Positions 8,593 through 42,996 are shown, counted from the stretch's first letter. The stretch is 64,000 nucleotides of DNA from an uncultured Clostridia bacterium (GCA_948485625.1 CAOMRW010000002.1:4452-68451); one strand, 5' to 3'. A program made the numbers and translations. The notes: generated from the sequence alone by a model not told the origin.

Positions 8593-9903
8593 CTAGTAAA
8601 GTGTGGCACGTGGACTAATGCTAATGTAGCTGTGAGAAGTAGTGGTGATGCCACGACAAGAAGCTGAATAGTCGGAACCATTAAGGTAGTAAACACCTCC
8701 CCTGTAAGCACAAGGATTAATGCTATCAAACATCCATCGCTCTAGTGTCCATTCAAATTCATTACCAGCCAAATCATAAATATTCATCTTATTAGTCTGC
8801 TCTGATGATCCTGTTGTTAATAATTGATAATAACTTGTATTACTTGAGGTTTGACTTGATGTTACATAGTTTTCTGTATCTTCATTAAATGGTTTCCATA
8901 TACTTGTTGGACTCTCTGGGTATACATTATACTTCCCTCTACTTAGTGTTAAACTACTATCAGTATAATTCCCCCATTCTTTACAATCTCCTTTTGTTAT
9001 TGCACTTCCTGCCTTTTCATCTATAAATTTACATGTTAAGTCCCATTGTATTCCAAATAATAAACTTGTTGTTTTATTTGTATCTGGTTTCATTCTATCT
9101 GCTAGTGTTTGAGCTTGACTACATGTTACATAATTATATGGTATTTGGTCTATTCGACTTACTGCCTCTCCTGTTATTCCACTTGACGCTGTTCTTGTTT
9201 TATTACTAGCTGTTGCAGTAGCATCACCTATTTCATATCTACTTATCCAAAATCCTCCATTTGAAAATACACTACTTAACATTTTTTCATAATTTTCTTT
9301 ATATTCATAATATGTTAATCCACATCCATTATTCAATTTCTTTTGCTCTTCTGTTAAATTTGTAGTTCTTTCATTTACTAATATCTCTCCATCTAAGGCA
9401 TGCCATTCATCTGCGAAACTACTAGTTCTATAATTTGTTGGAGTTGTTACATAATTTATTAAATCTGCTTTTATTGTATCATATTGCTTTGATTCTGTTG
9501 CAGTAAATATAGTCTTAGGCACTTCCACCCATGTCCATTCATTATCTTTACTATCTTTTATTACTATTCCTTTATTTGCATCTCCCTCTACAACTTCTTT
9601 TGTTCCATCTGGCATTGCACTTACTGGGTCTGTTATAGATGTATCTACATTTTTTATTTCTTCTCCTAAATTACTTCCTCCACTTAAATTATTTCCTAAA
9701 AATCCATTTATTGTATCTTCATATTCTTTTAATGTAGTATTTTCTCCTTCTTGAGCTTCTACTGATTTATTTTTTGCCTCTCCTGCTTTCTCAAATAATC
9801 CACTTCCTGTTAGACTTGCTATTGATATTCCTGCCAATATTAAAAGAATTATTATTGTTATTACTAGAGCAATTAGTGTTATTCCTTTGTTTTGTTCTTT
9901 CAT
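8593..9903 (-). CDS. membrane-anchored extracellular protein: pilin-like N-terminal signal anchor + FGE-sulfatase (SUMF1-like) domain
   Basis: N-terminus MKEQNKGITLIALVITIIILLILAGISIASLTGSG is a class-III/prepilin-like signal lacking Glu+5. C-terminal motifs GGFWISRYEI, IYDLAGNEFEWTLE and CAYRGGVYY match FGE-sulfatase family hallmarks (GFYMxKYEVT, DMSGNVWEWT, RGGSW). First gene of the cluster that continues with A1 and B1. Confidence 0.7.
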   Translation of the reverse strand: MKEQNKGITLIALVITIIILLILAGISIASLTGSGLFEKAGEAKNKSVEAQEGENTTLKEYEDTINGFLGNNLSGGSNLGEEIKNVDTSITDPVSAMPDGTKEVVEGDANKGIVIKDSKDNEWTWVEVPKTIFTATESKQYDTIKADLINYVTTPTNYRTSSFADEWHALDGEILVNERTTNLTEEQKKLNNGCGLTYYEYKENYEKMLSSVFSNGGFWISRYEIGDATATASNKTRTASSGITGEAVSRIDQIPYNYVTCSQAQTLADRMKPDTNKTTSLLFGIQWDLTCKFIDEKAGSAITKGDCKEWGNYTDSSLTLSRGKYNVYPESPTSIWKPFNEDTENYVTSSQTSSNTSYYQLLTTGSSEQTNKMNIYDLAGNEFEWTLERWMFDSINPCAYRGGVYYLNGSDYSASCRGITTTSHSYISISPRATLY

Positions 9904-10206
9904 ATTTTTATTATTTCCTCCTTTGTTTTTATATCCTCTTCTTTATTTAACATTATATTTTTTATTTATTTTTTACACAATAAAATAACAAATTTTAATT
10001 GTAAATAATTTTACATAAATTCTACTATCAAAACAATTCATCTCATATCCACAATACATAGAGTAGTAAAATTATAAATATATAATTTTTACAACTTATA
10101 TATATCACCAACCACTGTAACAAAATTCCCACAAAAACATATAATAAAATAATATATTCTACATATATCAAAACAAAAATAATATATTATACTAGAGGTG
10201 ATAAAA

Positions 10207-10656
10207 ATGAACAATATAAATATTGACGAAAACACAATGAACAACATCAAAAACATGGTTGATAATGGAAACATATCAGAAGCACTCTCAAACATATCTC
10301 CAGAAATGATACAAAACTTTACACAAATGCTATCAAATCAGCAAAATCAACCAAACCAAGCAAACAACAATTCTCAAGGAGAAACAACAACAAATAACTT
10401 CAATCAATCAAACGCAAACTCCACACCAAGCAACAATAACTTTGACTTTAGTAACATAGACATGAACACAATCATGAAAATGTCTTCTGTCCTAGGAAAA
10501 ATGAACACAACAAAAGACGACCCAAGAGCCAATCTACTAAACTCTCTAAAACCATATTTAAGAGATGGCAAAAAAGGAAAATTAGACAACTACATGAACT
10601 TATTAAACGTTGCAAAAATAGCAGACATAATGAAAGATAATAATAAAGGAGAATAA
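10207..10656 (+). CDS. hypothetical Asn/Gln-rich low-complexity protein
   Basis: ATG 10207 with RBS AGAGGTG 10194..10200 (track start 10198 is GTG). N/Q-rich composition. Stop overlaps the RBS of the next ORF (operon). Confidence 0.45.
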   Translation: MNNINIDENTMNNIKNMVDNGNISEALSNISPEMIQNFTQMLSNQQNQPNQANNNSQGETTTNNFNQSNANSTPSNNNFDFSNIDMNTIMKMSSVLGKMNTTKDDPRANLLNSLKPYLRDGKKGKLDNYMNLLNVAKIADIMKDNNKGE

Positions 10657-10661
10657 AAACA

Positions 10662-10985
10662 ATGTTTAGATTTCCATTCTATGGTTATCCATACAATAAC
10701 CCATACCATAGATACTACAATAACTATCCCAACAATATACAATATAATCAAAATACAAAAACTCAAGAAGTTGAAAAAAAAGATAGTATTACTAATTCAC
10801 ATGAAATTAGTAATACTATCAATTCAAGGTCTTCTGAAAAAGCAGAAGAAGCTCTATTTGAGATATTAGGAATCAAATTATATCTAGATGATATAATAAT
10901 TCTTGGTGTACTTTTTTTCCTATATGAACAAAAAGTAAAAGACGAAATGTTATATATTATATTATTCTTATTATTATTTGCATAA
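10662..10985 (+). CDS. hypothetical Tyr/Pro/Asn-rich protein with C-terminal hydrophobic segment
   Basis: ATG 10662 with AAAGGAG RBS 10646..10652. N-terminus FPFYGYPYNNPYHRYYNNYPNN. C-terminal TM-like tail IIILGVLFFLY. Convergent with minC. Confidence 0.45.
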   Translation: MFRFPFYGYPYNNPYHRYYNNYPNNIQYNQNTKTQEVEKKDSITNSHEISNTINSRSSEKAEEALFEILGIKLYLDDIIILGVLFFLYEQKVKDEMLYIILFLLLFA

Positions 10986-10987
10986 TA

Positions 10988-11620: not shown

Positions 11621-11624
11621 ATAT

Positions 11625-13742: not shown

Positions 13743-13757
13743 TTTTTCACCTTCCTC

Positions 13758-14300: not shown

Positions 14301-14375
14301 CTCTTTTTACAAAATCTCTTACACTCTTCCAGTTTCTATTTCTATGTGTTTTTATATATAATAATAACCACACAC

Positions 14376-23909: not shown

Positions 23910-24225
23910 CTTATTCTCCTATTCTATTTAACTTTTATTTTTTATACTATAATAATTCAAAAATTTTCATTTTCCATTATATATTTTCAAACCATAAAAG
24001 TCAAGAAAACACAAAAACTTTTTCAAACATTTTTTCGTCATACATTATAATTCAAAAGCAACCTAATATCTACTAATATAGAGTAGTTGAAATATCCCAT
24101 AAAAATTAAAAAACTAATTTCACTCCACTCTCTTCTAATAACCAAAAATCATCCATCATTAATTGACATAATGTTTTTTATATGATACAATAATAAACAT
24201 AAAAAATTAGAAAGGTGGTTTATAT

Positions 24226-26845: not shown

Positions 26846-27002
26846 AGCAAAATTTTAAGACATAAATAAATTTATTTAAGTTCACATATTAATTAATATA
26901 GAGTAGTTGAAATTATAAATATATAAATAAAATCATTTTATCCAAATGTGATTAAGCAAATCTAAAAAGCTCTAAAATATTACTTCAAAAACATTACACA
27001 TA

Positions 27003-29451: not shown

Positions 29452-29500
29452 ATCTTTATCCTCCTAAACTGTTTTTTTCCTCCGTCCCCAAAAACAGTTT

Positions 29501-30601
29501 TTATTCCAAAGCATCAAAACCAATTTCAATTGCTTTTTCTATTATATCTTTCTCATCATCAGACCACTCTTCATTTTTTAGCTTTTGTAACATCTCTTTA
29601 GCAAATAATCCTTTCAAAGTATTTTCATTTGCTAATTTATTTAAATCATAATTTATTTTCGTCTTATCTTTAATTTTTATTATACTATCATTAGAAATCA
29701 ACTTATATAATTCATATCTATTAATTTCAAAGTTTCTTTTTCCTACTAAAATAATCTCTATAAAGCAATCATCACTAAATTCTAGTTCATTAATTGCTTC
29801 TATTAACTCCTCTTTTGAAACAAAAGGTGTGACATCAACATCTTTTAATTTGAATTGTGTCTCATCTAATGGAATAAATTCTAAATCTATATTTGTTTTT
29901 TCTGTATTTCCTTTTTCTAAATTTCCTACTATCATTCCATGTTTGCCAAGTTCATCAAATCCTAAAGAAACTAATGAACCTGGATACACTATATTTTGAT
30001 TTTCTTCTTGATTGTAATCTAATTTATGAATATGACCTAAAGCAATATAATCAAAACCTTTTTCTTTTAACATTTTTCTAGATAAAGGATTATATTGTTT
30101 TTCTTCTGTTGTGCTTGCATCTAATGAACCATGAATTAATAAAACATTTAATTTACTTTTATCATCGATAATAACATTTTCTATATCACTACCTTCACAA
30201 TAAAATTCATCAAAACCATGTCCATATACATTTATATCTTTTAATTCGACTTTTTCTATTTCTGACTTAAAAATCTTAACATTATCATTCCACATAAATT
30301 TATTATAATAAGAATTCTTTATATATGGATCATGATTACCTGGAGCAATAAAAACTTTTGTATTTGGAATCTCCTTAAACAAATTATTTATATAATCAAT
30401 TGTTGATCTCTTCACATATTTTTGTTCATACAAATCTCCAGAAATAAATAAATATTCTATATCATTCTCTTTTATATATTCAATTACCTTTTTAAAAACC
30501 TTTCTCTGCTCTAATCTTCTTAAATCTCCTAGACTATCTTTATCAGAAAGATTAACAAAAGGACTATCAAAATGCATATCTGCTATATGTACAAACTTCA
30601 T
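29501..30601 (-). CDS. yhaO: SbcD-family metallophosphoesterase (YhaO-like DNA repair exonuclease)
   Basis: Calcineurin-like motifs HIADMHFD, GDLYE, GNHD, GHIH. Start MKFVHIADMHF at 30601 behind GGAGG. Confidence 0.8.
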   Translation of the reverse strand: MKFVHIADMHFDSPFVNLSDKDSLGDLRRLEQRKVFKKVIEYIKENDIEYLFISGDLYEQKYVKRSTIDYINNLFKEIPNTKVFIAPGNHDPYIKNSYYNKFMWNDNVKIFKSEIEKVELKDINVYGHGFDEFYCEGSDIENVIIDDKSKLNVLLIHGSLDASTTEEKQYNPLSRKMLKEKGFDYIALGHIHKLDYNQEENQNIVYPGSLVSLGFDELGKHGMIVGNLEKGNTEKTNIDLEFIPLDETQFKLKDVDVTPFVSKEELIEAINELEFSDDCFIEIILVGKRNFEINRYELYKLISNDSIIKIKDKTKINYDLNKLANENTLKGLFAKEMLQKLKNEEWSDDEKDIIEKAIEIGFDALE

Positions 30602-30698
30602 AATTTCCTCCATATTTTTATTTGACTTTTAATAAAAAACTGTGTATAATAAATATAGAAAACAAAACACAGAAATGTGTTGTTACATAAATCTTGTT

Positions 30699-30746
30699 AA
30701 TACACTACATTGCCTGCCAAAGCTAAATGTAGTGTATTTTTATTTA
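30699..30746 (+). terminator. intrinsic terminator-like hairpin
   Basis: aatacactacatt-gcctgccaaagct-aaatgtagtgtatt 13-bp stem, followed by ttttatttatt. Confidence 0.45.
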
Positions 30747-30757
30747 TTCCTTATTAG

Positions 30758-30847
30758 TTAAAAGTATGTAACAACTGTTAATACGGCTACGTTTATAGTT
30801 AGTGATATCATAAATCCTATAATTAAAGATAGTAAAAAATCCACCAT
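30758..30847 (-). CDS. candidate 29-aa hydrophobic peptide (MVDFLLSLIIGFMISLTINVAVLTVVTYF)
   Basis: ATG 30847 with GTGAGGTGG RBS 5 nt upstream. Single predicted TM helix. Below the ORF-track size cutoff. Confidence 0.25.
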   Translation of the reverse strand: MVDFLLSLIIGFMISLTINVAVLTVVTYF

Positions 30848-31113
30848 AAACACCACCTCACTTTCTCATAGTAAAACTATGAAGTTTAGTGGCAACTCTC
30901 ACATCTGCTTTTATCTCATTTCCTATAACAAACACTATACATTATATTTTTCCAAAAAACAAGCGAACACAACAATTTTTACAAAATTCATATCACAACC
31001 AAACAATCTATTCCCCAACATTACTACACACTACCAAAACAACACACTCTAAAGTGGAGTAGTTGAAAAAATAATTTTATTGATATATTAACTTTTTCAA
31101 CGGCCCATTTAAA

Positions 31114-31148
31114 TCAAAAAAGAAGATGCTTTCTACAAAACATCTTCC
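31114..31148 (-). terminator. intrinsic terminator after the T4CP gene
   Basis: gaagatg-ctttctacaaaa-catcttc followed by tttttt on the minus strand. Confidence 0.55.
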
Positions 31149-31154
31149 CTAAAT

Positions 31155-33234
31155 CTAATTCTCATCCAAAGGCCCAAACAATTCATCAAACTTAGCCTCT
31201 AACTCTTTTTGTAAATCATAAGAATCCTCTTCTTCTTGCTGTGGAAGTACTGGAGCATCATCTTCAAAATTTAAATCTAATATATTATCTACTGCCTTTT
31301 CTTCTTTTAAAGTTTTATCTTCAATACCTACTTTAGCTGTCACTTTATCTTCTACTTTTTCATTAATATTATCTTGTTTTTTCTCTTTGTTATTATCTTT
31401 TTTATCATCCTTATCAATGTCTTCAAATAAATCATCTAAAGACTCAATATCTAAATTATCTACTGCTTTTTCTCCTTTATCCTCAACAAAAGGATTATAA
31501 GGATTATATTTTCTCCAAGGTCCTCTATCAATTTCTCCTATGTCATTATGGCTAATCTCATATCTAGCAAGTTCTTTAACCATTGGATGTTTAAAATAAT
31601 AAAACTTATTTGCTTTAACAGGTTTAATACCTTTTTCATAAATAATACATAAGTCATTGTCCATTCTTCTCAATTCATCTGGAGTCATAAGAGCTCTAGC
31701 CATTACTTGATCTGACTTATTATATCCTTGTCTCCACATATGTTTATCTTTACTTACAGACCAATTATCTCTAGATATTGTCTTTTCTCCTAAGGCTTTT
31801 GAAAAGTACTCTACTGTTTTAAATGAGTTACTTCCTAAAAATACATGTGTATCACAGTTACCCATTATAGTTTCATAAGATTTCTCATAAACAGCTTCTA
31901 ATTGATCAATATTTTGTAAAATAACACTAAAAGATATTCCTCTACTTCTTGAAGTAGAAATCTTTTTATCGAAATCTGGTATTTTACCAATATTAGCAAA
32001 CTCATCTAATATAAAATATGTTCTTTCTTTTAATGCTCCACCATTTTTATCTGCAAAATCATATAATTGTTGTATCATTTGTGAAAAGAATATAGTAAGT
32101 AAAAAGTCATATGCTGTATGCGTATCAGACGAAATTACATATACTGCTGTTTTTTTGCTTCCTATTTCCTCAAAATTTATTGTATCAGTTGATGTCAATT
32201 CTGCAATTTCCTTTGAATCAAATTTACCAAGCTTTGATTGCAAAGAACTTAATATTGAGCCATATGTCTTCTCTGGAGCTATTTCAATTGATTTATAATA
32301 CATTCTTGCTGGATGGTCATATGGTAATTGATTTATCAAATCTGAAAGTAAGTTACTACCTCCATTTTTATTCGCAGCTCTTACAAGTTCTGCACAACTT
32401 GCCAAGTTCTGTTCTTCTTCTGGTCTTGTTGCTATTAAATAATAAATTAAAGCTTTTAATAACATTTCTGCCATATCATCCCAATATGGGTCTGAACCAC
32501 TCTCAGTCTTTTGTCCTTTTACAACTGTATTTGCAATAACATCTACATCCAATTCAGATGAAATATGCATTAATGGATTGTATCCATCACTATATTGTGG
32601 TCTAACTAAATTTAAAACTTTTATTTCATAGCCATGTTCTTTCAAATATCCTGCAGTTCTATCGTAAAGTTCACCCTTTGGATCTGTAAATATATAAGAA
32701 CCTAAACATTGATATGCATTAGGAATTGAATATGATGCAGATTTACCAGAACCTGAACCGTCCAACTACTAATACATTTACATTTCCTCTTTTATCAAGT
32801 GGTAAATAATTGTCCTCTGCTAAAATAATACCTTTATTTTTACTTAATATTTGATATTGCTCTCCTCTTTGACTCCAATCACTTGAACCATGCTCTATAT
32901 CTGTAAATTGATTTTTAGGAGCTGATTTCGCAAATCCTATAAAAAATACTACTAAATAAACTATTGTAAATCCTAGTAAAAATGATATAAAATCATGTGT
33001 TACTCCATTTGTAAATATTCCAGCAAAAGTCCCAAATGGATTTGACATATTAGAAACTATTTTTTCCATAAATATTTCTAAAGAAATCCCTCCATCTACC
33101 TTTGCCTGAAATGTAGTATATGAAAATGGCGCAACAAATACTATGACTAATAATAGCCATAGTATTGAACATATTATAAAACTTTTTTTATTTTTTCTTA
33201 TTGCACCCTCTATTTTGTAGTTCATATATTTCAC
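31155..33234 (-). pseudogene. type IV secretion coupling protein (VirD4/TraG/TraD family), interrupted by a frameshift near 32745..32765
   Basis: ORF 32743..33234 holds the N-terminal TM helices plus HGSSDWS and ...NVNVLVVG. ORF 31155..32765 begins in another frame with SGSGKSASYSIPN...IFTDPKGEL. Together they rebuild the Walker A (VLVVG|SGSGKS) of a single T4CP of about 690 aa. Confidence 0.7.
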
Positions 33235-33250
33235 CTTCTCTTTTGTTATA

Positions 33251-33583
33251 TTATCTATCTTCTACAGATAATTCTTGACTATCTTCTTTTTGTTCTCTAA
33301 TTCTAGCTAATTGCATTTCTCTATCTTTTTTATTTATTCTTATATTAGTCCTTTGGCCACTTGTAAGTTCCCTATAACCATCTAAACTAACCTCATGAGT
33401 TTCTACACTAGCATCAATAGTTGGCATTAAAGTATCAACTACATCTATAGTTGCACTTGCAGTAGTTTTAGTAGCATCTCCATTTCTTTGTCCTTTTTCT
33501 AATGTATTATCAAGAGCTGCCATTGCCATAAATGAAATTACTGTTCTAGCTCCTTCTACGTTTTCTATTGGACTTCTATTCAT
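33251..33583 (-). CDS. hypothetical protein (mobile-element remnant)
   Basis: ORF only. Tightly spaced with flanking minus-strand genes. Confidence 0.4.
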   Translation of the reverse strand: MNRSPIENVEGARTVISFMAMAALDNTLEKGQRNGDATKTTASATIDVVDTLMPTIDASVETHEVSLDGYRELTSGQRTNIRINKKDREMQLARIREQKEDSQELSVEDR

Positions 33584-33595
33584 TTAACTTCCTCC

Positions 33596-34117
33596 TTAAT
33601 ATTCTTTCTTGTCTCTGATTTCAAAGGCAAAATAAGATTTATATGGTTTTAACTTACATTTACCCCTTACTTCATTTGTTCTTTCATCAAAATAAAGTAT
33701 TGGTTTTAATTCTTCTGTAGTTTCTGGATCTATTATACAAATAGGTCTTTTTAAATTCGGTGTATATTTAAAATCTTTTACTTCTTTTTCTTCTTCTGAA
33801 TATATGCTATCAAATTTAAGTGGCATTGGTTTTTTGCTTATTGAAATTTTATCATCAACCATTACTGCTGTATTGACAACTACTCTTTCATTTGCAAAAG
33901 ATAATATTAATAATTCATCTTCTTGTGTTGGGAAGTCTACATAAAATGTTTTTCTTTTCATATTTCCCCTAATCTCTTCTGTATAATCTAATCTATCAAC
34001 TGTATATTTTGGATATTCCTTTAAATATTCTTTTGGCGTTTTATTTATTTGATATATAACTGTATTTACTCCTTCTGGATCAGTTATACTAAAATGTTTT
34101 CCTTGCCACGTTTCCAT
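33596..34117 (-). CDS. hypothetical protein (mobile-element remnant)
   Basis: ORF only. No recognisable domain. Confidence 0.4.
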   Translation of the reverse strand: METWQGKHFSITDPEGVNTVIYQINKTPKEYLKEYPKYTVDRLDYTEEIRGNMKRKTFYVDFPTQEDELLILSFANERVVVNTAVMVDDKISISKKPMPLKFDSIYSEEEKEVKDFKYTPNLKRPICIIDPETTEELKPILYFDERTNEVRGKCKLKPYKSYFAFEIRDKKEY

Positions 34118-34439
34118 AATTTACACCTCACTTCTATGTTTCAGTCCATAGTTCGTCTTTTGTTTCATCACTATTTATAATTATAGCCAATTTCTAGGGA
34201 TTTGTCAACACTTTTATGTAAATTTGAGTAATAAATAAAAATCGCTATTTAAAATATGTAGTAATAGAAAAGTTATTAATTCTTCCTCACTAGTTTTTGG
34301 AGAAATTTTTATATATTTTTTATATATTAACTCTGGAATGTCTTTTTTTAGGTAACTCATACAAATCACTTGCATAAAATAAAAGTATATGCTATAATAT
34401 TTATATCAAGCAAATAGTAAAATTTAGGAACAAAACAAT

Positions 34440-34476
34440 AAAAACCCTCGTAGCTGCTACTACGAGGGGTTTTGCT
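34440..34476. terminator. bidirectional intrinsic terminator
   Basis: aaaaa-ccctcgtag-ctgcta-ctacgaggg-gtttt: 9-bp GC-rich stem with an A-run on one side and a T-run on the other. Confidence 0.75.
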
Positions 34477-34567
34477 ATTTATGTAATTTTTCAATTATCT
34501 CTATTGCTAGAATAACTACATCAACTACAACAGCAAATATCTTTAGTATAATTTTTGCTAGGAACAT
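34475..34567 (-). CDS. candidate 30-aa hydrophobic peptide (MFLAKIILKIFAVVVDVVILAIEIIEKLHK), type-I-toxin-like
   Basis: ATG 34567 with GGAGGC RBS (34576..34581). Single TM helix with a charged C-terminus. Stop at 34475 abuts the terminator hairpin. Confidence 0.3.
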   Translation of the reverse strand: MFLAKIILKIFAVVVDVVILAIEIIEKLHK

Positions 34568-34691
34568 TATGTTTTGCCTCCTTTCTTCAAGATTTCCTTG
34601 AAATAAGGATAGGCTTATTATATATCAAAGCACATACATTGTCTATAACTTTTTATAATTCATTAATAAATATTAACTAATAGTGTTTTAA

Positions 34692-35561
34692 TTACTCTCC
34701 CCTTGGATTAAAACTTGACATTTCCTTTAATTTTTCAAACATCTCTTGTTCATCCAATTCCAAGTTTTTAGGAACCATTATCTTAACATCTGCTATTAAA
34801 TCTCCTCTACCACCTTTTCCATCTTTATAACCTTTATTAGGTATTTTTACTTTTTCACCGCTCTGTATTCCTTGTGGTATATAAACTTTAGTTTCACCAT
34901 CAATAGTTTTTATATTAACTCTTGTTCCTAAAGCAGCCTCCCATGGTGTAAGTTTCAAATCTGTACATAAATCACATCCAAATAATTTAAATACTCTATT
35001 ATTTTCTATATCTATTTTTATAAATAAATCTCCATTTTTTCCACCATTACTTCCAGCTTTCCCTTGTCCAATTAATCTTATTTTTTCTCCATTTCTAATA
35101 CCCTCTGGAATCTTTACTGAAAATGTTTTCATTTTTCCTTCTACAGTTCTTAAAGAAATTTTCTTTTCTAGACCATAAAAAGCATCTTCCAAACTTACCT
35201 TTATCTCTGTTTCTACATTTTCTCCTTTTATCGGGTTTTTTTGTTTTTTTACTTTATCTCTATCTATATTTTCTACATTTCCTAAAAACATATCAAAAAT
35301 ATTTCTTCCTTTAATATTTTGATAGTTCTTTACATTATTTTTTGAATTCCAAATCCTATCATATTTTCTTTTAGAAGCTGGAACAGATAAAGTTCTATAT
35401 GCTTCATTTATATCTTTTATTCTTTCTTCTGCTAATAAATCTCCAACATTTAAGTCTGGATGATATTTTTTAGCTGCTAATCTATATGCACTTTTTATTT
35501 CATCAATTGAAACTCTACTAGTCTCTAATCCCAACAATTTATAATAATCTTTATATTTCAT
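34692..35561 (-). CDS. J-domain protein, DnaJ/CbpA-like without zinc finger
   Basis: J domain DYYKLLGL...KYHPD. DnaJ C-terminal beta-sandwich domains. No CxxCxGxG repeats. Confidence 0.8.
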   Translation of the reverse strand: MKYKDYYKLLGLETSRVSIDEIKSAYRLAAKKYHPDLNVGDLLAEERIKDINEAYRTLSVPASKRKYDRIWNSKNNVKNYQNIKGRNIFDMFLGNVENIDRDKVKKQKNPIKGENVETEIKVSLEDAFYGLEKKISLRTVEGKMKTFSVKIPEGIRNGEKIRLIGQGKAGSNGGKNGDLFIKIDIENNRVFKLFGCDLCTDLKLTPWEAALGTRVNIKTIDGETKVYIPQGIQSGEKVKIPNKGYKDGKGGRGDLIADVKIMVPKNLELDEQEMFEKLKEMSSFNPRGE

Positions 35562-35638
35562 TTAACATCCTCCCAAAATTAGGTAGATATATTATATCAC
35601 AAAATAGAAAAAAATCCATACGTTTTATGGATTTTTTA

Positions 35639-37379
35639 TTAAAATGTTTCCATTTTTACTTGTTTTCCATTAAAGCAAAATACCATTTTTGTAATATTAG
35701 AAAATCCTCTCTCTTTCAGATTTTCTTCATATTTTTTATTATCAATTTGTTTTTTAGCATTCTCTATTGTTTTTTCTAATGTTTCTTCTTTTTCATCTTC
35801 TAAAACCTTAAACTCTATAATAAAACTATTTGCATTTTTATCTTTTGGCTCTAGCATTATATCATATCTTCCATACCCTGATTCTCTATTTGAATTCACA
35901 TAGTATGTATCCCTTAATCCAACTAACATCCCTAGTACAAATGCATGATAAAAATTCTCTGCTGTGTTTTCTCCTACATCCATATAACTAAACATTTCTC
36001 TTACTAGTACTTTGAATTTTTTTTCAAACTCTTCAAGATTTAATGTTACTAAATCATTTAATATACTTTTTAAATTATTTCCTACTACTTTATCATTAAA
36101 CCAATTTCTTATTATTCCTCTAAATAATTCTTTTATCTCTTTGTTTGGTATTTTTACTTTATATAGCCCCTCTGAAATATCTATTGTTTCTACTACCTTT
36201 AAATAGCCTGTCCCTAGTAATAATCCCCATATATTATTTTCATTTTTTTCTATTCCAACTATTACTGTTTCTTGATCTAAATATACCTCAATTGCTTCAT
36301 CATTTAATAATCTTTCTATTTTTTCTTTCAATATCAAAGAATTTTCCAATATTATTTTTATTAAATCATTTGAACTTGTATTCACCCAATATGGAATCAA
36401 CTCTCTTCTTTTTAAATAGTTTAATATGCTCCATGGATTATAAATTCCATTTGTATTACCTATTCTATAACCATCATACCATCTTTTTATTTCCTCTTTA
36501 TCATCTTGAATTTGGAAGTCCTCTACAACTTTATCCATTTCTTTTTCTGTAATTCCAAAATCATTACTAAACTCATCATTTAAAACTGTATATACATCAA
36601 AATTATTTGCTCCGACTAAATATACTCTCTTTTGCGACTCTACTTACACCTGTTATTACTGTTTTCTCTAAATATGGGTTATCTTTGAATGTTGTCCCAA
36701 AAAATGTCTTAAAAAATTTTATAGATTCATCATAATATCCTTCTACATAAAAATTTTGCAATGGTACATCATATTCATCCAGAAATAGCATTACTGGTCT
36801 ATTATAGTATCTATTTAAATATTTTGAAAGTTGTTTTACACTATTTTTCAATACATTTTCATCTGCTCTAAACCATAATATATCATTTATCTGTTCCTTT
36901 TCTTCAGGATATATTATATCACTATCTAATAAATATCTATGTTCTTGATACATATCTGATATTGCAGATTTTAAATTTAATAGCATTTTTTCATAAGTAG
37001 TATCATTTACATCCTTTAATGTCATATATATACATGGATATGCTCCTAATTTAGATATATATTTTTCTTCTTGTTCTAATATTTTTAACCCATTGAATAA
37101 TTCTCTATTATCTTTTTGTGAACAATCAAAATAATATCTTAGCATACTCATATTTAATGTCTTACCAAATCTTCGTGGTCTTGTTACTAAAATTACACTA
37201 GATTGATTATCTATAATATCTTTAATATATAAAGATTTATCTATAAAATAATTATCTCTCGTTCTTAACATTTTAAAATCACTAACTCCGATTCCAATTC
37301 CCTGCATTTTAACACCTTCCTTTTCTAGTATTTCTCTATATTTTAGATTTATTCTACTATAAAAAAATATAAATTTCAA
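35639..37379 (-). pseudogene. AAA-ATPase-like (PF09820) + PD-(D/E)XK nuclease (DUF1703) protein, split by a +1 frameshift plus stop at about 36540..36605
   Basis: Upstream ORF 36603..37379 carries GIGVSDFKMLRTRDNYFIDKS...RPRRFGKTL. Downstream ORF 35639..36538 carries the PDDEXK_9 core GYGRYDIMLEPKDKNANSFIIEFKV. The sequence between them (FDVYTVLNDEFSNDFGITEKE) continues the protein in the +1 frame, across an aaataatttt run. Confidence 0.65.
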
Positions 37380-37683
37380 CAGTTTTGAAAATTTATTTAA
37401 ACTTTTAAATAAACATTGACAAATACAACAATATTTATTTAAATTATATAAGATAGTGAAACATATATAATTTCAGATAATTTTTCCTGTGTTAAGTTTG
37501 TTTCTTTTTAACTTAATTCTTTCTCCAATTTCTATATAATTTAATTCGTACATAAAAACCCTTATTATTATAATATTTTATAGTGAAAGAAAAATAAACA
37601 AAATCACCTTAACGTATTGAAGTTCATTTATAAGTGTACTAAAATATTTTTAACTTAAAGCAAAAGAAGAGGAAAAAATAATT

Positions 37684-38808
37684 ATGAAGAAAAATAGAAA
37701 TAAAGGAATAACATTAATAGCATTAGTTATAACGATAATAATTCTGTTAGTCTTAGCAGGAATATCAATAGCAAGTCTAATAGGAAGTGGAGTATTTGAA
37801 AGAGCAAAAGAATCAAAAGAAAAATCAGAACAAGCACAAATAAAAGAAGAAATAGAAATGGTGATAATGGACATACAAGTAGAAGAAATATCAAAGGGAA
37901 ACAATGTAACATTAGAATTGCTAGAAAAAGTGTTACCAAATAAATTAAAAGACATTGAAACTGAATTAAGTAATGAAAAAATAGATGGAACATATAAAGG
38001 CTACATCTATACAATAGATAAAAATTTAAAGGTAACAATAAATAACCAAATGACTGAAGAAGAAGAAAAAAGACTTTCAATAAAAGCTAGTTATACTTTT
38101 TTAAAATTACCAACAAATGAAAATGATATGAATGCTAAAATTAACTTAAAAATAAATAGTAAAAATTTAATAACTAATATTACATATCCAGATGGAACTT
38201 CATTTGAAAACAATGATGAAAGACAAGAAATAGAGCAGGAATTAAATGTTACTTTAAATACAGAATATATAATAAAATGTACATTAAGTGATAACAGTAT
38301 TGTAAATAAAAAAATAACTATACCTATAAGTGAACTCCTTATTACAAAAATGATAAATAATACAACAAATGACAAATCAGAAACAATTGCTAACATAACA
38401 TCTGATACATATTTCAGTCAAGAATATTTACCTTATTATGCATTTGACCGAAATATTACTACTTCTTGGTGTACTGAAGCTAATGCAGTATTTCCGCAAA
38501 ATTTGTATTATGAATTTACAGATGGTAAAAAAAGGAAAGTAGAAAATGTGCAATTTACAACAGATTTTATTGCACATCATAATGCATATGATGTACAAGT
38601 ATATGGAACTAACGATGATATAAATTGGTTCCCAATAATTGAAAGAACGACATTACCATTAAAATATGGGGAAAATTATACTGTATTAAATGGACTTTCT
38701 AACGAATCATTTAAAAAATTCAAATTTACCTGTTATAACTATTCTTTTAGTGTATATGCTGATGCAGCTATTTGGGATGTTCAAATGTATGGAAAAGTAG
38801 TAAATTAA
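37684..38808 (+). CDS. membrane-anchored extracellular protein: pilin-like N-terminal signal anchor + C-terminal discoidin (F5/8 type C)-like domain
   Basis: N-terminus MKKNRNKGITLIALVITIIILLVLAGISIASLIGSGVFERAKESKEKS is nearly identical to those of the 8593..9903 and 41911..42996 genes. C-terminus YYAFDRNITTSWCTE...YDVQVYGTNDD...AIWDVQMYG is discoidin-like. Confidence 0.7.
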   Translation: MKKNRNKGITLIALVITIIILLVLAGISIASLIGSGVFERAKESKEKSEQAQIKEEIEMVIMDIQVEEISKGNNVTLELLEKVLPNKLKDIETELSNEKIDGTYKGYIYTIDKNLKVTINNQMTEEEEKRLSIKASYTFLKLPTNENDMNAKINLKINSKNLITNITYPDGTSFENNDERQEIEQELNVTLNTEYIIKCTLSDNSIVNKKITIPISELLITKMINNTTNDKSETIANITSDTYFSQEYLPYYAFDRNITTSWCTEANAVFPQNLYYEFTDGKKRKVENVQFTTDFIAHHNAYDVQVYGTNDDINWFPIIERTTLPLKYGENYTVLNGLSNESFKKFKFTCYNYSFSVYADAAIWDVQMYGKVVN

Positions 38809-38828
38809 AAAACTGAAAAACAAAAAAA

Positions 38829-38870
38829 TTCCTTAAAATACATTTATGTTATTTTTAAGGAATCTTTTTG
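38829..38870 (+). terminator. intrinsic terminator after the 37684 gene
   Basis: ttccttaaaa-tacatttatgttat-ttttaaggaa followed by tcttttt. Confidence 0.6.
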
Positions 38871-39230
38871 TTTAAGAATATACGAAAATATTTAAATGAT
38901 ATCTTTTTTCAATATATTTTTCTTTCTTCCATGCTTGAAATTATAACTTCATCTTTTTTCTTCCGATAATCTCTAAAAAAGTATTTTTCACTTTATTTAT
39001 TGATACTTGATTTAATTTCTGACTTAACAACTCTAATTTTTCTCTCTTCCATACTCCTCTAATACAAAGTAATACTTTAATGCAAAATAGCTTGTACATA
39101 TTTTATTAAAGTATTACTTTGGAATCAAACTATTAATCCCATAGTAATACTCTTATTCATTAATCATAAATTTTGCATTTTATAATAAAACTTACTATTT
39201 TCTTCTATTATTCATTTATTAATCAAAAAT

Positions 39231-40322
39231 CTATAGAGCTAGCTCAATTAATTTATCTAATAACTCACTATACCCAATACCCACATAATCAAAAAGTTTT
39301 GGATACATACTAATACTAGTAAATCCTGGTAAAGTATTTATCTCATTAATAAAAACCTTATCTGTATCATTCTCTATAAAAAAGTCCACACGAGACAATC
39401 CTTTCCCATCAATCGCCTTAAAAGCTTTTATAGCTAGTTCTCTAATTTCATTTGATTTCTCATCAGAAATATTAGTAGGAATCAACACCTTTGATTCTTG
39501 ATTATTATATTTTGCATCATAACTATAAAATTCGTCAGCAGCTTTAATTTCTCCTACACATGAACTAATAACTTCTTCATTTCCTAAAACTGCACATTCA
39601 ACTTCTCTACCAATAATTCCTTCTTCTATTAAAATTTTTCTATCAAACATTGAAGCTTCCACTATAGCTTCTCTTAATTCATCTTTACTATTAACTTTGC
39701 TTATTCCAACACTTGAACCAGAATTTGATGGCTTCACAAACATAGGAAACTTCAATTTATTTATTATTATATCAGAAATATCTTCTAAATCTAAAATAGT
39801 TTCATTAAATTCCTCATCAATATAAATATATTTTTCATCAAAACTTCTTAAATAAACATATTTAGTCTGACTTATACCAGCCTTATCAAAAGCAATTTTT
39901 GAATAAACTTTATCCATTCCAACACTAGAAGCTAAAACTCCACACCCAACATATGGTATCTTTAATAATTCAAAAAGACCTTGTATTGTACCATCTTCTC
40001 CATATAATCCATGTAATACAGGAAAAACAACATCAAGAGATTTTAAAAATTCAATAACATTATCTATATGTATTTTATCTTTTAGTTCTTCTCCTACTAC
40101 CTCATTCTCTTCTAAATTATTGACATTAAACCATTCTCCATTTTTATCTATATAAATTGAATAAATATTATATTTTTCTTTATTTAGATGTTTTATAACT
40201 GAAACACCAGATACACAAGAAACTTCATTTTCTGTTGACATTCCACCAAATATAACACCTAATTTTAACTTTTCCAAAATATTAATCATCTCCTTCAAAA
40301 TATAACCATTAATTTTTTGCAA
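39231..40322 (-). CDS. ddl: D-alanine--D-alanine ligase
   Basis: ATP-grasp motifs. HGLYGEDGTIQG, KPSNSGSSVGISKV, C-terminal NEINTLPGFT. Confidence 0.9.
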   Translation of the reverse strand: MQKINGYILKEMINILEKLKLGVIFGGMSTENEVSCVSGVSVIKHLNKEKYNIYSIYIDKNGEWFNVNNLEENEVVGEELKDKIHIDNVIEFLKSLDVVFPVLHGLYGEDGTIQGLFELLKIPYVGCGVLASSVGMDKVYSKIAFDKAGISQTKYVYLRSFDEKYIYIDEEFNETILDLEDISDIIINKLKFPMFVKPSNSGSSVGISKVNSKDELREAIVEASMFDRKILIEEGIIGREVECAVLGNEEVISSCVGEIKAADEFYSYDAKYNNQESKVLIPTNISDEKSNEIRELAIKAFKAIDGKGLSRVDFFIENDTDKVFINEINTLPGFTSISMYPKLFDYVGIGYSELLDKLIELAL

Positions 40323-41703
40323 GGCTTTCTGCTATCTCAAAAAACCTCATTCCATTTGAAGCTTTAAATAAAATAGCATCTCCGTCTTTCCAATTTTCCT
40401 TAATAAAAGTATCTATTTTTCTCTTATCTTCAAAATAAAAAATATTACAAGAATCCATTCCATTTTTCTCGGCTTCTTCTGCAATATATTTTGCATTTTC
40501 TCCACTACAAATTAGAATATCTATATCATTTTCAGTAACTTCTTTTCCAACTTTTTCATGAAGCTCCTTTGAATATTCACCAAGTTCAAACATATCTCCT
40601 AATACTGCAATCTTCCTATTGTTCTTTAATGCACTCAAATATTTTAAAGATGCTTGCATTGATTCAAAACTTGCATTATAACTATCATTTATAATTGTCA
40701 CTCCATTTTTCAATTCTGTTATATCCATTCTTTTTTTAGTTAGCTCAAATGTTTCAATTCCTCTTTTTATTTGTTCAATACTTAGTCCCAATATATTTCC
40801 AACAGTAGCAGCACACAATGCATTATATACAAAATGAATTCCTCCTACTGGAACTAATACTTTAAATCTTTCTCCTTTTAAATTACAAACGAATTCACTG
40901 TTATTTTCATTTAAAACAATATCTTCTGCCATAACTTCAGATTTGTTTTCAATTCCATATGTATATATTTTTATATCTTTGCTTTTTAAAGATAAATCAT
41001 GCAACAAATCATTATCATTATTAACAACTAATAACTTTTTTTCCATTCCATCTAATATTTCTAACTTAGCTTTCAGAATATTCTCTCTAGAACCTAAATT
41101 ACCAATATGTGATGTCCCTATATTAGTAATAACTGAAATTGTTGGTTTAGCTATTTGAGTTAATTCACTTATTTCTCCAAAATGATTCATCCCCATTTCA
41201 ATTACAGCTGATTGATGGTTTTCAAGTCTAAATATTGTAAATGGCAATCCTATATTATTATTATTATTCCCTTGTGTCTTTAATGTTTCATATTTTTGAG
41301 AAACAACATTTGCTATTATATCTTTTGTACTTGTTTTCCCTACACTTCCTGTTATACCAACAACTGGAAAATTCTCTCCATATAAACTTCTTTTATATTT
41401 TGCAATATCAGAAATTGCCTTAATTGTATCTTCTACTTCTATAATATTTCTATCTTCCAAGCCACTTAACTCTTCTTTTGTAAAATCCACACCTTGTATT
41501 ATTACAGTACTAGCACCTTTTTCAAATGCTTGCTTCCAAAGTAGATTTCCATCAAAATTTTCTCCTTTTATTCCTATATATGTATCACCTGGATTTATTA
41601 TTCTTGTATCTTTACAAAATTCTCTACATTCTGAATTGATATTTCCTTTTATTAATGTTCCTTTTGTTACATCTATTATTTCTTTTATTTTCATTTTTTT
41701 CAT
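40309..41703 (-). CDS. murF: UDP-N-acetylmuramoyl-tripeptide--D-alanyl-D-alanine ligase
   Basis: Mur ligase P-loop GITGSVGKTSTKD and Mur ligase C-domain. Overlaps the ddl start (operon). Confidence 0.9.
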   Translation of the reverse strand: MKKMKIKEIIDVTKGTLIKGNINSECREFCKDTRIINPGDTYIGIKGENFDGNLLWKQAFEKGASTVIIQGVDFTKEELSGLEDRNIIEVEDTIKAISDIAKYKRSLYGENFPVVGITGSVGKTSTKDIIANVVSQKYETLKTQGNNNNNIGLPFTIFRLENHQSAVIEMGMNHFGEISELTQIAKPTISVITNIGTSHIGNLGSRENILKAKLEILDGMEKKLLVVNNDNDLLHDLSLKSKDIKIYTYGIENKSEVMAEDIVLNENNSEFVCNLKGERFKVLVPVGGIHFVYNALCAATVGNILGLSIEQIKRGIETFELTKKRMDITELKNGVTIINDSYNASFESMQASLKYLSALKNNRKIAVLGDMFELGEYSKELHEKVGKEVTENDIDILICSGENAKYIAEEAEKNGMDSCNIFYFEDKRKIDTFIKENWKDGDAILFKASNGMRFFEIAESLAKN

Positions 41704-41782
41704 ATAATCACCTACTCATATTATTCTTGTTAGATTATATGCTTTTTTTATTTTTTTTGCAATCAATAATATTAAAAAAATC

Positions 41783-41885
41783 TGTCATAATCAAAAGCCA
41801 GGTCTTTCCCTCTTACTTTTATATATATAAAAGTAAGGATTAAAGACCTGGCCTCTCATTACTATCATATTAACACAGACTTTTT
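41783..41885. repeat. palindromic MITE/REP-like intergenic element (copy 2)
   Basis: aaaaaatctgtcataatcaaaa-gccaggtctttccctcttactttt...aaaagtaaggattaaagacctggc-...acacagacttttttat. Same termini (aaaaaatctgt / acagacttttttat) and ccaggtct/agacctgg core as copy 1. Confidence 0.6.
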
Positions 41886-41910
41886 TATGGCCCTTTTTTT
41901 TACATAAGTT

Positions 41911-42996
41911 TTATACATCCATTAAATTTGATAAATATTTTTGATTAAATATCTTTGTTGGGATGCATACAACTGGACGAACTGGCAGTATATTTGTATT
42001 AACATATGAATACACCGATAAACTACAATCAGTATCCACATAATATTCTGATTCAGTTCCATATCCAGTTCCAGCAGGAGATGCTAACCAATAATAATTT
42101 ATTGTATCAGATCCATATATTCCATGATTAGAACCTAATTCACTTACACTATTTTTTATTAAACTATATCCTATATTATTAGTTTCAATTTCAATTATAT
42201 TATCTTTATTGTTTCTATTATTATATGAAGCAACTATAAGTTCTAATGTTGGACTACCTATTGCAAACAAAGCATCTTCGTTAGTATAATGACTCCATAA
42301 TTCTGCATCAGTCAGCCATGCAGTAACTCGTATGTTATTGCTTGTATTTTCTTCTGTAAATAATGATTTTATCATAGGATTTAATTTTTGCCCAACTAAA
42401 CTAACATCTGCACCATTTTGATAATTCTCACAATACCTTAATGGTACTTTATCTGCTACTGAATTATCTAAATTATCAGAAATTATATATGTACAACTTG
42501 TATCTTGATAAAATAATCTCCAACCATTTGTTATATCTTCTTTTACATTATAGTTTGTTACTTTCCATCCATATTTATCAGTGTTTATAGCTCTTTTCTT
42601 CCCTATTGTTAATTCTTCTATTGTAATATCTTCATAATTATATGCTACTATTATTGTATATCCATTTCTATATATATTAATACTATTTTCTTCTAAAATT
42701 TCATATTCATCTATTTGATTGTTTTGAACTTTTTCATCTAAAAATTCTTCAAAAGTTATTTTATTAATTTCTTTTTCTATCTCCCATTCATCTAGCACTA
42801 ATCCTATCTCTTCTTCTGCCTGTGCCTTTTCACTTTTCTGCTTACTTTCTTTCGCTTTTTCAAATAATCCGCTTCCTGTTAAACTTGCTATTGATATTCC
42901 TGCTAGTATTAATAATACAATAATGGTTATAATTAATGCTATCAATGTAATCCCTCTAGTATCTCTCATTTCCTTTTTCCTCCTATGTTTCAACAT
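41911..42996 (-). CDS. membrane-anchored extracellular protein: pilin-like N-terminal signal anchor + unknown C-terminal domain
   Basis: N-terminus ...RGITLIALIITIIVLLILAGISIASLTGSGLFEKAKESKQKS is the third paralogue of the conserved signal anchor. The C-terminal 260 aa have no recognised motif (Cys/His-containing, possibly hydrolase-like). Confidence 0.65.
   Translation of the reverse strand: MLKHRRKKEMRDTRGITLIALIITIIVLLILAGISIASLTGSGLFEKAKESKQKSEKAQAEEEIGLVLDEWEIEKEINKITFEEFLDEKVQNNQIDEYEILEENSINIYRNGYTIIVAYNYEDITIEELTIGKKRAINTDKYGWKVTNYNVKEDITNGWRLFYQDTSCTYIISDNLDNSVADKVPLRYCENYQNGADVSLVGQKLNPMIKSLFTEENTSNNIRVTAWLTDAELWSHYTNEDALFAIGSPTLELIVASYNNRNNKDNIIEIETNNIGYSLIKNSVSELGSNHGIYGSDTINYYWLASPAGTGYGTESEYYVDTDCSLSVYSYVNTNILPVRPVVCIPTKIFNQKYLSNLMDV

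Follow-up and report, generated by a model that had tools for sequence, protein, structure and literature searches.

Three genes in the window, the whole 64,000-nt stretch of DNA that we analysed, begin with almost the same pilin-like segment and then continue into proteins of different sequence. The segment carries no glutamate at position +5 (Glu5). Glu5 is described as almost invariant in bacterial type IV pilins and as needed for homopolymer assembly (PMC4471445, PMC10191384). Glu5 mutants make no homopolymeric pili in the bacteria that have been studied, although the residue is often missing in archaea (PMC4471445). The very AT-rich host genome belongs to an uncultured gut Clostridia; it is bacterial, judging by its clostridial housekeeping genes.

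The shared N-terminal segment and its family

The first-pass annotation had recognised three ORFs with a common 45-residue N-terminus, and all three, here called W1, W2 and W3, were recovered at the positions and on the strands listed in Table 1. A scan of the whole window found the motif in these three ORFs only. Two of the genes, including W2, are reproduced exactly in a second public assembly, on a 14.5-kb contig (L005, GCA_950096955.1) that is 100% identical to window positions 28806-43299. W3 is called with 352 aa in L005, so its start may lie 9 codons further in than tabulated, at 42969.

Table 1. Positions in the window of the three genes and of their predicted parts.
Feature	Position	Strand	Description
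W1, candidate modular pilin gene	8593..9903	-	436 aa; Ala5 pilin module + linker + predicted C-type-lectin/FGE-sulfatase-like domain
W1 predicted pilin module	9706..9903	-	residues 1-66; leader MKEQNK, Gly, alpha1 helix
W1 cargo domain	8596..9666	-	residues 80-436; predicted C-type-lectin/FGE-sulfatase-like fold
W2, candidate modular pilin gene	37684..38808	+	374 aa; Ala5 pilin module + possible discoidin (F5/8 type C) domain
W2 tentative discoidin match	38395..38652	+	residues 238-323; Pfam F5/8 type C 21.9 bits (E 2.1e-4), cut-off 28.2
W3, candidate modular pilin gene	41911..42996	-	361 aa; Ala5 pilin module + small unit + C-terminal domain
W3 cargo domain	41914..42609	-	residues 130-361; weakly DUF6273 / Lcl-C (DUF1566)-like

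The features of a class III signal that had been noted were seen directly. The leaders are short and basic, with Gly at -1 (MKEQNK-G in W1, MKKNRNK-G in W2 and (MLKHRRKKE)MRDTR-G in W3), the core after the Gly reads ITLIAL[VI]ITII..., the hydrophobic alpha1N stretch (ITLIALVITIIILLILAGISIA) is 22 residues long, and all three proteins have Ala instead of Glu at +5. In the AF2 models the N-terminal helix runs over residues 6-72 of W1, where it is broken at 33-36, and over residues 11-78 of W3. The W1 module is a bare helix in the model, without a globular pilin head. Judged from its sequence, the common segment consists of a class III (prepilin) signal and, after it, a pilin alpha1 helix.

Starting at the conserved Gly, any two of the 45-residue cores agree at 36-38 of 45 positions. 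This value (80-84%) falls slightly short of the ">85%" given earlier; the 31-residue hydrophobic core is 90-94% identical. The corresponding DNA differs at 23-39 of 135 bases (71-83% identity), and each pair of cores has 11-20 synonymous codon differences. So many synonymous changes at this level of protein identity indicate purifying selection on old paralogs and not a recent duplication. Together with the exact copies of two genes in L005, they also exclude an assembly artefact, the explanation that the first-pass annotation had itself raised.

Established pilin signatures score low on these proteins. Pfam N_methyl (PF07963) gave 15.4, 20.0 and 16.4 bits for W1, W2 and W3, all below the cut-off of 21.2 bits, which the operon pilin of a related locus (L002) clears with 22.4 bits. 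Neither TIGR02532, the model named by the earlier reader, nor any other prepilin N-terminal-domain model is among the NCBIfam matches listed at E ≤ 1 for W1-W3; those matches are sub-threshold full-length pilin and pseudopilin models only.

What had been taken for a family of three proved to have relatives by the thousand, which are unnamed and escape the N_methyl signature. The full-length architecture of W1 is represented by at least 6,593 sequence clusters, and some MAGs hold more than 10 copies of the family. Its carriers are uncultured low-GC Clostridia from the guts of human, rabbit and chicken. Because the family escapes N_methyl, and because no NCBIfam prepilin N-terminal-domain model is listed, censuses of pilins and modular pilins undercount it. 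Of 110 distinct family ORFs, 109 have Ala at +5, the presumptive major pilin among them. The Gly at -1 was found in 110 of 110 in a scan anchored on that Gly, and a few database relatives have Ala in its place. Ile stands at +1, and leaders range from 5 to 30 residues. Pilin-like proteins of one such uncultured order, TANB77, have already been linked to host immune effects, via a different, Tad-like cluster (PMC11680825).

W1-W3 lie scattered in the genome and apart from the pilus operon, and their flanks contain no transporter genes. The mobile or repetitive DNA that had been placed beside two of the genes amounts to little: a lone TraG/VirD4-like gene lies 4.9 kb from W2, and a 20-30 nt motif that shows no evidence of being a MITE occurs 155 nt upstream of W1.

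The grafted domains

Sequence similarity among W1-W3 is no longer detectable past approximately residue 60 (BLASTP E ≥ 0.085; profile-profile probability 0.2%). The earlier description of the C-termini as completely divergent and unrelated is therefore correct for sequence but not for fold, as two of the three appear C-type-lectin-like.

In the AF2 model of W1 (mean pLDDT 85.9, cargo domain mostly >90), a long helix at the N-terminus leads into a disordered linker (residues 67-76), after which a globular domain forms independently. In a Foldseek search of the PDB this domain matched best to the DGR variable proteins TaqVP (E 6.5e-4, probability 1.0) and TvpA; CarF, FGE (many entries) and PvdO followed, and Mtd was also among the DGR proteins matched. 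As modelled, the W1 cargo appears to have the C-type-lectin/FGE fold. The Pfam FGE-sulfatase model (PF03781) reached 14.6 bits against a gathering score of 23.3, and a few relatives are annotated with it. Among 112 module-bearing ORFs of related loci, at least 26 carry a homologue of the W1 cargo domain, and the W1 and W3 cargo domains both recur on the same pilin module across many genomes.

In W3, a small unit made of a helix (residues 82-91) and three strands (97-118) precedes a C-terminal domain of about 230 aa (AF2 model, mean pLDDT 89.1). This domain matches the C-type-lectin superfamily weakly; a C-type-lectin-like fold is probable, and the Lcl-C/DUF6273-like assignment is weakly supported. 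For W2, the sub-threshold Pfam match points tentatively to a discoidin (F5/8 type C) domain. Residues 238-323 had no sequence match in the PDB, and the W2 cargo had no homolog among the related loci fetched. Overall, the cargo domains of W1-W3 look lectin-like.

A type IV pilus operon and candidate processing enzymes

The assembly that shares the identical contig also carries, on its contig 22 (L086), a single, complete type IV pilus operon consisting of pilMN, pilO, a 72-aa pilin (P0014), a PilD-like gene, two minor pilins, pilB, pilT and pilC. The ATPases are PilB/PilT-type T2SSE proteins, and the platform protein is a PilC-type T2SSF protein. P0014 has 34-38 of the 45 core residues in common with W1-W3, and over its whole length it is 68% identical to W1 residues 1-70. 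Its mature form would have 66 residues and is helix-only by prediction. The W1 pilin module corresponds to the entire short major pilin, with 65-70% full-length identity to the 71-73-aa operon pilins P0014, P0068 and P0072. W1-W3 are thus associated with a pilus operon through a paralogous pilin in L086 and not by adjacency. This operon, with its PilD homolog, PilB, PilT, PilC and a pilin with the same N-terminus, bears out the shared machinery that the first-pass annotation had predicted.

The same type of operon recurs in eight other genomes, with one to three Ala5 pilins in the major slot (L002, L023, L045, L051, L057, L070, L077 and L080). In 9 of 9 operons the major-position pilins carry Ala5, and Asp or Glu at +5 is retained in a single minor pilin.

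The PilD homolog of the operon matched A24_N_bact with approximately 100-106 bits. Its methylase-type domain is strongly conserved, including the four cysteines of the CxxC...CxxC motif. No match to Peptidase_A24 was obtained at E ≤ 1-10 in six such homologs, and all 120 of 120 database relatives are PF06750-only. A control, Pseudomonas aeruginosa PilD, matched both A24_N_bact and Peptidase_A24. The GxGD motif was not found in the operon protein; the first Asp (GID) is conserved, as is another Asp 49 residues further downstream. Only in related MAGs was there a canonical A24 peptidase encoded as a stand-alone protein.

Competing explanations and known systems

We consider that W1-W3 are probably modular type IV pilins of a Glu5-less pilus lineage in uncultured low-GC gut Clostridia, and that they most likely act as adhesive cargo subunits of the genome's own type IV pilus. 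The alpha1 helix would insert each protein into the membrane, and a prepilin peptidase would cut off the leader after the Gly. The PilB/PilC machine would then add the proteins, via the common alpha1 helix, to filaments made mainly of the small helix-only pilin, and the lectin-like modules would be presented along the fibre or at its tip, where they would adhere to glycans or other ligands. Cleavage, pilus incorporation and adhesive function are what we infer for W1-W3.

W1-W3 could instead be membrane-anchored surface proteins with an uncleaved signal-anchor (type II topology) and a helical stalk, which never enter a filament. With Ala at +5 the proteins do lack the residue that homopolymers require for assembly in model systems (PMC4471445), the operon PilD homolog has no recognisable peptidase domain, the three genes are dispersed and distant from the pilus operon, and the pilin signatures stay below threshold. 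A generic anchor, however, has no need of Gly at -1, Ile at +1 and Thr at +2, which are near-invariant here, nor of high identity, under strong purifying selection, to the operon's own pilin. The same module makes up that entire 72-aa pilin, for which no other role is conceivable, and the strong conservation of the PilD homolog's four-Cys methylase-type domain implies that its substrate is a processed N-terminus. A canonical A24 peptidase also exists in related genomes. We regard the anchor explanation as rather unlikely. The undescribed, bindosome-like secretion or display route favoured by the first-pass annotation gives way to the simpler reading of modular type IV pilins (PMC8179133). That W1-W3 are processed and assembled by PilB/PilC into a short pseudopilus- or bindosome-like surface structure, or secreted, for substrate capture seems improbable to us, since the operon has the PilT-type retraction ATPase and the PilMNO proteins typical of true retractile type IV pili, the cargo is lectin/FGE-like and does not consist of solute-binding proteins paired with ABC transporters, and nothing positive sets this proposal apart from ordinary pilus display. 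In its favour are the class III signal that lacks Glu5, a trait also of archaeal bindosome proteins (PMC4471445), the major pilin of only 66 residues when mature, which is helix-only, and the carbohydrate-binding type of the cargo folds.

The match of W1 to DGR variable proteins (TaqVP, TvpA, Mtd) as its best structural neighbours, and the many paralogs that have a conserved 5' end in common but vary at the 3' end, might also indicate targets of a diversity-generating retroelement, or antigenic-variation cassettes that use the 5' module as a recombination handle. However, the window contains neither a template-repeat copy of the W1 3' end nor a reverse-transcriptase ORF (no long ORF with YxDD), and each paralog has its own start codon and leader, so that we give this explanation very little credence. 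Ongoing gene conversion is disfavoured because the 5' modules are 71-83% identical in DNA, with many synonymous differences.

Beyond the reading of W1-W3 as modular pilins, we put forward as a tentative possibility that the lineage may run its type IV pilus natively without the salt bridge between Glu5 and the N-terminus. The fibre, built from a 66-residue helix-only subunit, would be a general display scaffold for interchangeable lectin-like modules, and a stand-alone A24 peptidase would share the work of prepilin processing with a methyltransferase-only PilD derivative. This proposal counts on Ala5 in all major-position pilins and in dozens of orphan paralogs per genome, with Asp or Glu at +5 left in a single minor pilin. 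If it is true, the near-invariance of Glu5 in bacterial pilins would have a natural counter-example in this lineage, which would also be the first to separate the peptidase and methylase functions. The replacement of Glu5 by Ala in a whole, very abundant lineage, the major-position pilin included, amounts to a natural experiment on the purpose of Glu5 and N-methylation. For gut ecology, a repertoire of pilus-displayed lectin-like modules would largely determine what these bacteria adhere to, be it mucus, dietary glycans or other cells.

Type IV pili are well known in clostridia. The operons described here resemble the pil operons of Clostridium perfringens and Clostridioides difficile in their fused PilM-PilN, PilO, pilins, PilD, PilB, PilT and PilC and in belonging to a Gram-positive anaerobe. 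The major pilins of those species have the canonical Glu5 and their PilD has both Pfam domains, whereas here the major-position pilins have Ala5 and the PilD homolog lacks a recognisable Peptidase_A24. Very short helix-only pilins are also known, namely Geobacter PilA-N and the Flp/Tad pilins, and the 72-aa operon pilin (66 residues when mature), predicted to form approximately one long helix, is similar to them. It differs in having no Flp motif (G/XXXXEY), no adjacent PilA-C-like gene and PilB/PilT instead of Tad machinery. Membership among the Tad/Flp pilins was rejected on the mature N-terminus, ITLIAL without Glu5-Tyr6, and on the PilB/PilT-type ATPases and PilC-type platform.

Modular pilins, in which a functional domain is grafted onto a pilin module, have been described for Streptococcus sanguinis PilB and PilC and are widespread (PMC8179133); the attachment of adhesive or lectin domains to a pilin module is a well-established design (PMC8179133, PMC9934059). 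W1 and W3 each combine the module with a domain that is not pilus-specific, the defining trait of modular pilins; in W2 the match to such a domain is sub-threshold. Like S. sanguinis PilB (vWA) and PilC (lectin), the present proteins have a grafted domain that is not pilus-specific, a monoderm Firmicute host, cargo of lectin or adhesin type and predicted display on a filament. In contrast to them, they carry Ile at +1 and Ala at +5, and the IPR012902/PF07963-type signature used to define modular pilins fails on them. Moreover, the W1 module is a headless helix, the genes are orphans outside the pilus operon, and the family is hugely expanded, to thousands of clusters.

The tip-capping minor pilins GspK/PilK are likewise Glu5-less and bulky, with a predicted position at the tip (PMC10191384); in those systems a single capping subunit lacks Glu5, whereas here the pattern is inverted, with Glu5 absent from nearly all subunits. 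In archaea, class III signals without Glu5 (those of pilins, archaellins and the sugar-binding proteins of the bindosome) can likewise be attached to diverse extracellular domains (PMC4471445). Our proteins differ from these in being bacterial, in their PilB/PilT/PilC/PilMNO operon, in a PilD-type methylase domain and in cargo that is not solute-binding. The bacterial host and the lectin-like, not solute-binding, cargo led us to reject membership of the bindosome type. As modelled, the W1 cargo appears to share its fold with the FGE-sulfatase/DUF1566 C-type-lectin superfamily, including TaqVP, TvpA and Mtd (Foldseek probability 1.0), but the window holds no DGR and the domain is fused here to a pilin module. 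The features that are non-standard in the present system are Ala5, a very large family that pilin signatures miss, and a PilD homolog without a recognisable peptidase domain, alongside the stand-alone A24 peptidase of related genomes.

The shared N-terminal module and its cargo

Three open reading frames of the window, W1, W2 and W3, begin with a short basic leader followed by Gly and the sequence ITLIAL[VI]ITII[IV]LL[IV]LAGISIASL[TI]GSG[LV]FE[KR]A.E.K.KS..AQ, confirming the first-pass annotation, which had described a common pilin-like N-terminus with divergent C-termini. From the Gly onward, each pair of proteins shares 36–38 of 45 residues (the module), and beyond approximately residue 60 no sequence similarity among the three was detectable. 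At the DNA level, 23–39 of the 135 core positions differ in each pair, with 11–20 synonymous codon changes. The maintenance of the residues despite synonymous divergence indicates that the module is under purifying selection in old paralogs. Together with the identical genes in a second assembly, these synonymous differences rule out a recent duplication or misassembly, the artefact considered in the first-pass annotation: a public contig, L005 of GCA_950096955.1, is 100% identical to window positions 28806–43299 and includes W2 and W3. No exact match to W1 was found in the contig index. No further ORF with the module N-terminus is present elsewhere in the window, and a literature search with the peptide string GITLIAL gave no match. 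For W3 there are two candidate starts, 42996 and 42969; the downstream Met is that of the public gene call (352 aa, leader MRDTRG), and the longer ORF adds MLKHRRKKE.

The module is poorly captured by existing models. Pfam N_methyl scores it at 15–20 bits against a cut-off of 21.2. At E ≤ 1, no NCBIfam model of a prepilin N-terminal domain, such as TIGR02532, matched it; the NCBIfam matches were to full-length pilin and pseudopilin models only, all of them sub-threshold.

The AlphaFold2 model of W1, built from a 61-sequence alignment (mean pLDDT 85.9), consists of a helix over residues 6–72 that breaks at GSG, a disordered linker (67–76) and a confident globular domain (80–436). The best PDB structure matches of this domain are TaqVP, TvpA and Mtd, variable proteins with a C-type-lectin fold that belong to diversity-generating retroelements (DGRs); next come CarF, formylglycine-generating enzymes (FGEs), PvdO, EgtB and PorK. 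These matches make the earlier label "FGE-sulfatase-like" valid at the level of the fold. Since neither a template repeat nor a reverse transcriptase was found in the window, we rejected W1 as a DGR target. At E ≤ 1e-5, full-length relatives of W1 form at least 6,593 clusters; identity among the best 120 listed is 44–88%, and almost none is named. The discoidin domain suggested earlier for W2 is a less secure assignment: a Pfam match is present, but at 21.9 bits it falls below the cut-off of 28.2, and neither the comparison of loci nor a PDB sequence search with the W2 cargo, which returned nothing useful, gave it further support.

Features of the window and of the pilus operon loci
Feature	Sequence	Position	Strand	Remark
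W1	window	8593-9903	-	ORF, 436 aa
W2	window	37684-38808	+	ORF, 374 aa
W3	window	41911-42996	-	ORF, 361 aa
Giant surface-protein gene 1	window	3250-8139	-	1,629 aa
Giant surface-protein gene 2	window	3-3233	-	>1,077 aa, cut by window end
Giant surface-protein gene 3	window	53461-62316	-	2,951 aa
Motif ATATAGAGTAGTTGAAA, five copies	window	10058-10085, 24076-24092, 24885-24901, 26896-26912, 31052-31070		intergenic, ~20-30 nt
TraG/VirD4-type coupling protein gene	window	31155-32765	-	
Three small ORFs	window	32743-34117	-	no Pfam matches
PDDEXK_9 nuclease and AAA-ATPase_like domains, adjacent ORFs	window	35639-36538, 36603-37379	-	64 nt between
Small bacterial SRP RNA	window	52237-52333	-	
tRNA-Arg(CCT)	window	53298-53373	-	
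PilD homolog	L086	3455-4252		
PilD homolog	L002	10294-10920		
PilD homolog	L045, L051, L057, L070, L077, L080, L023			
Minor pilins	L086	4265-4699, 4850-5293		equivalents in eight other operon loci
Stand-alone Peptidase_A24	L034	964-1716		related MAG
Stand-alone Peptidase_A24, start	L046	12165-12320		same MAG as L077

Module-only pilins and their operon

The window contains no pilus machinery genes. The gene for P0068, a module-only pilin of 73 aa, lies in a Gram-positive type IV pilus operon of textbook layout, which encodes a fused PilM-PilN, PilO, a small membrane protein, the pilin itself, a PilD homolog, two minor pilins, PilB, PilT and PilC. A second such pilin, P0014 (72 aa), is encoded in an operon of like kind on contig 22 (L086) of GCA_950096955.1, the assembly whose contig 43 is the one identical to the window. 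The presence of both contigs in one assembly indicates that the machinery is encoded by the organism itself or by a near-identical strain. P0014 shares 34–38 of the 45 core residues with W1–W3. Furthermore, residues 1–70 of W1 are 65–70% identical to the operon pilins across the whole length of the latter, closer than they are to W2 or W3.

The layout is common to nine independent operons (L086, L002, L023, L045, L051, L057, L070, L077 and L080). In each, the major-pilin position is occupied by one to three pilins of 72–180 aa with Ala at +5, counted from the predicted cleavage after Gly (Ala5). Two minor pilins are also encoded in each operon: one of ~140 aa (79 aa as found in L077), in which +5 is Asp or Glu, and one of ~140–170 aa, in which it is Ser or Thr.

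The PilD homolog of these operons is unusual. Its methylase-type, four-Cys domain (A24_N_bact, PF06750) is strongly conserved, while Peptidase_A24 (PF01478) was undetected in the six homologs tested, and all 120 database relatives listed are PF06750-only. As a control, P. aeruginosa PilD matches both Pfam domains. Two Asp residues are conserved, the first catalytic-type one (GID) and another 49 residues downstream of it, at a cytoplasmic membrane interface; GxGD is missing. The L002 homolog is truncated to 208 aa, with Ser replacing the first Asp, and a PDB sequence search with the PilD homolog gave nothing useful. In related MAGs we found a canonical Peptidase_A24 (67 bits) without a methylase domain as a stand-alone gene. 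This points to a possible division of prepilin cleavage and methylation between two proteins in this lineage.

Spread of the family and genomic setting

A database search with a 52-residue consensus of the module returned 1,281 clusters, the best-ranked being mostly proteins of ~70 aa that consist of the module and ~25 further helical residues. When one genome per species was scanned, at least 373 matches were confirmed. Among the matches listed, all carriers are MAGs of uncultured gut Clostridia or genomes named "Clostridium sp. CAG", with 23–31% GC; they come from rabbit, chicken and human samples (Hadza among others), and a genome often has many copies. The 80 loci examined contain 110 distinct module-bearing ORFs of 42–715 aa, often arranged in tandem; 109 of the 110 have Ile at +1, and 109 have Ala at +5. 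Of 112 module-bearing ORFs in these loci, at least 26 have a domain homologous to the W1 cargo. Most of the genes, W1–W3 included, are orphans distant from the operon. The further proteins and machinery that the first-pass annotation had proposed to look for in this genome and its relatives exist, as these matches and the PilB-containing operon; the operon's PilD homolog has no detectable peptidase domain. A search of 2.9 million viral contigs gave five weak matches only; the family is essentially absent from them and is therefore not phage-borne. Recombination or antigenic-variation cassettes are also unlikely, as DNA identity among the 5' modules is only 71–83% and every gene has a separate start.

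Two members outside the window may be degenerate. One, of 91 aa, is the fourth in the same organism (L001 134–409, contig 13 of GCA_950096955.1); no long ORF lies on the same strand in the ~1.3 kb that follows, and the gene may be a truncated pseudogene. The other, a W1-type gene (module and FGE-like domain) adjoining murF in a related MAG, is present as two ORFs (L034 6665–7057 and 7092–7763), apparently split by a frameshift, that is, a family member in decay.

The gene content of the window is that of a chromosomal core (minC, PBP2, mreBCD, radC, mecA, pcrA, prfB, ddl, murF, ypeB, a sleB-like gene, recR and dnaX). The mobile setting described earlier, with a MITE copy and a conjugative-element remnant beside the genes, was not substantiated as a whole, since it comes down to a short motif and a lone TraG-like gene. 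Three copies of the motif are exact (0.1 expected by chance) and two are degenerate; one lies upstream of W1, at a distance of 155 nt. Neither terminal inverted repeats nor other signs of a MITE were found at the copies, and the motif could be a regulatory site. The TraG/VirD4-type gene, followed by the three small ORFs, may still be read as a remnant, but its surroundings hold no further conjugation genes. The PDDEXK_9/AAA-ATPase_like ORF pair is immediately upstream of W2, on the opposite strand; because these domains usually occur in one protein, the gene is probably disrupted. Giant surface-protein genes 1 and 2 are directly downstream of W1, and genes 1 and 3 have paralogous stretches in common (repeat spacing 54,658 nt). 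All three giant proteins contain SdrD_B, DUF11 and SpaA-type domains. The SRP RNA and tRNA-Arg(CCT) genes are located between dnaX and a giant surface-protein gene.

Interpretation and relation to known pilins

We consider it probable that W1–W3 are modular type IV pilins. The α1 helix would insert them in the membrane, the leader would be cut off after Gly, and the proteins would co-polymerise with the small helix-only pilin, so that lectin-like cargo is displayed for adhesion. Conservation of the module alone would be explained if it is the part that must be recognised by the prepilin peptidase, by the platform/ATPase machine and by the filament core. Because the main subunit would be a bare helix and the W1 linker is flexible, display along the fibre, besides the tip, is conceivable.

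The absence of Glu5 and the odd PilD homolog would also agree with an uncleaved signal-anchor, a reading we regard as unlikely because it leaves unexplained the near-invariant Gly –1, Ile +1 and Thr +2, the identity to a module-only operon pilin, and the conserved methylase domain of the PilD homolog. Placement of W1–W3 in a bindosome or pseudopilus-like structure appears more improbable still: nothing found speaks positively for it, PilT and PilMNO are encoded in the operon, and the cargo is not of the solute-binding protein type.

Modular type IV pilins would be a variant of a described design. In S. sanguinis, PilB and PilC are pilins onto which a vWA and a lectin module, respectively, are grafted; a catalogue based on the IPR012902 signature lists more than 1,200 modular pilins in 264 architectures (PMC8179133), and the present family escapes that signature. 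The class III signal and shared machinery proposed in the first-pass annotation stand, whereas its new secretion route does not. A conserved Tad-like pilus cluster has been reported in TANB77, an uncultured gut order, and the pilin-like protein of that cluster stimulates TLR4 and improves the anti-PD-1 response in mice (PMC11680825); this system differs from the PilB/PilT/PilC operon described here. What is new is the extension of a Glu5-less signal to the major-position pilin, the size of the family and its invisibility to annotation, the degeneration of PilD, and the ecological context. In bacterial pilins the hydrophobic stretch is "almost invariably" interrupted by Glu5. Homopolymer assembly depends on this residue but cleavage does not, and the tip-capping minor pilin is normally the sole subunit without it (PMC4471445, PMC10191384). 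The nine operons show the inverse arrangement, with Ala5 in the pilins at the major position.
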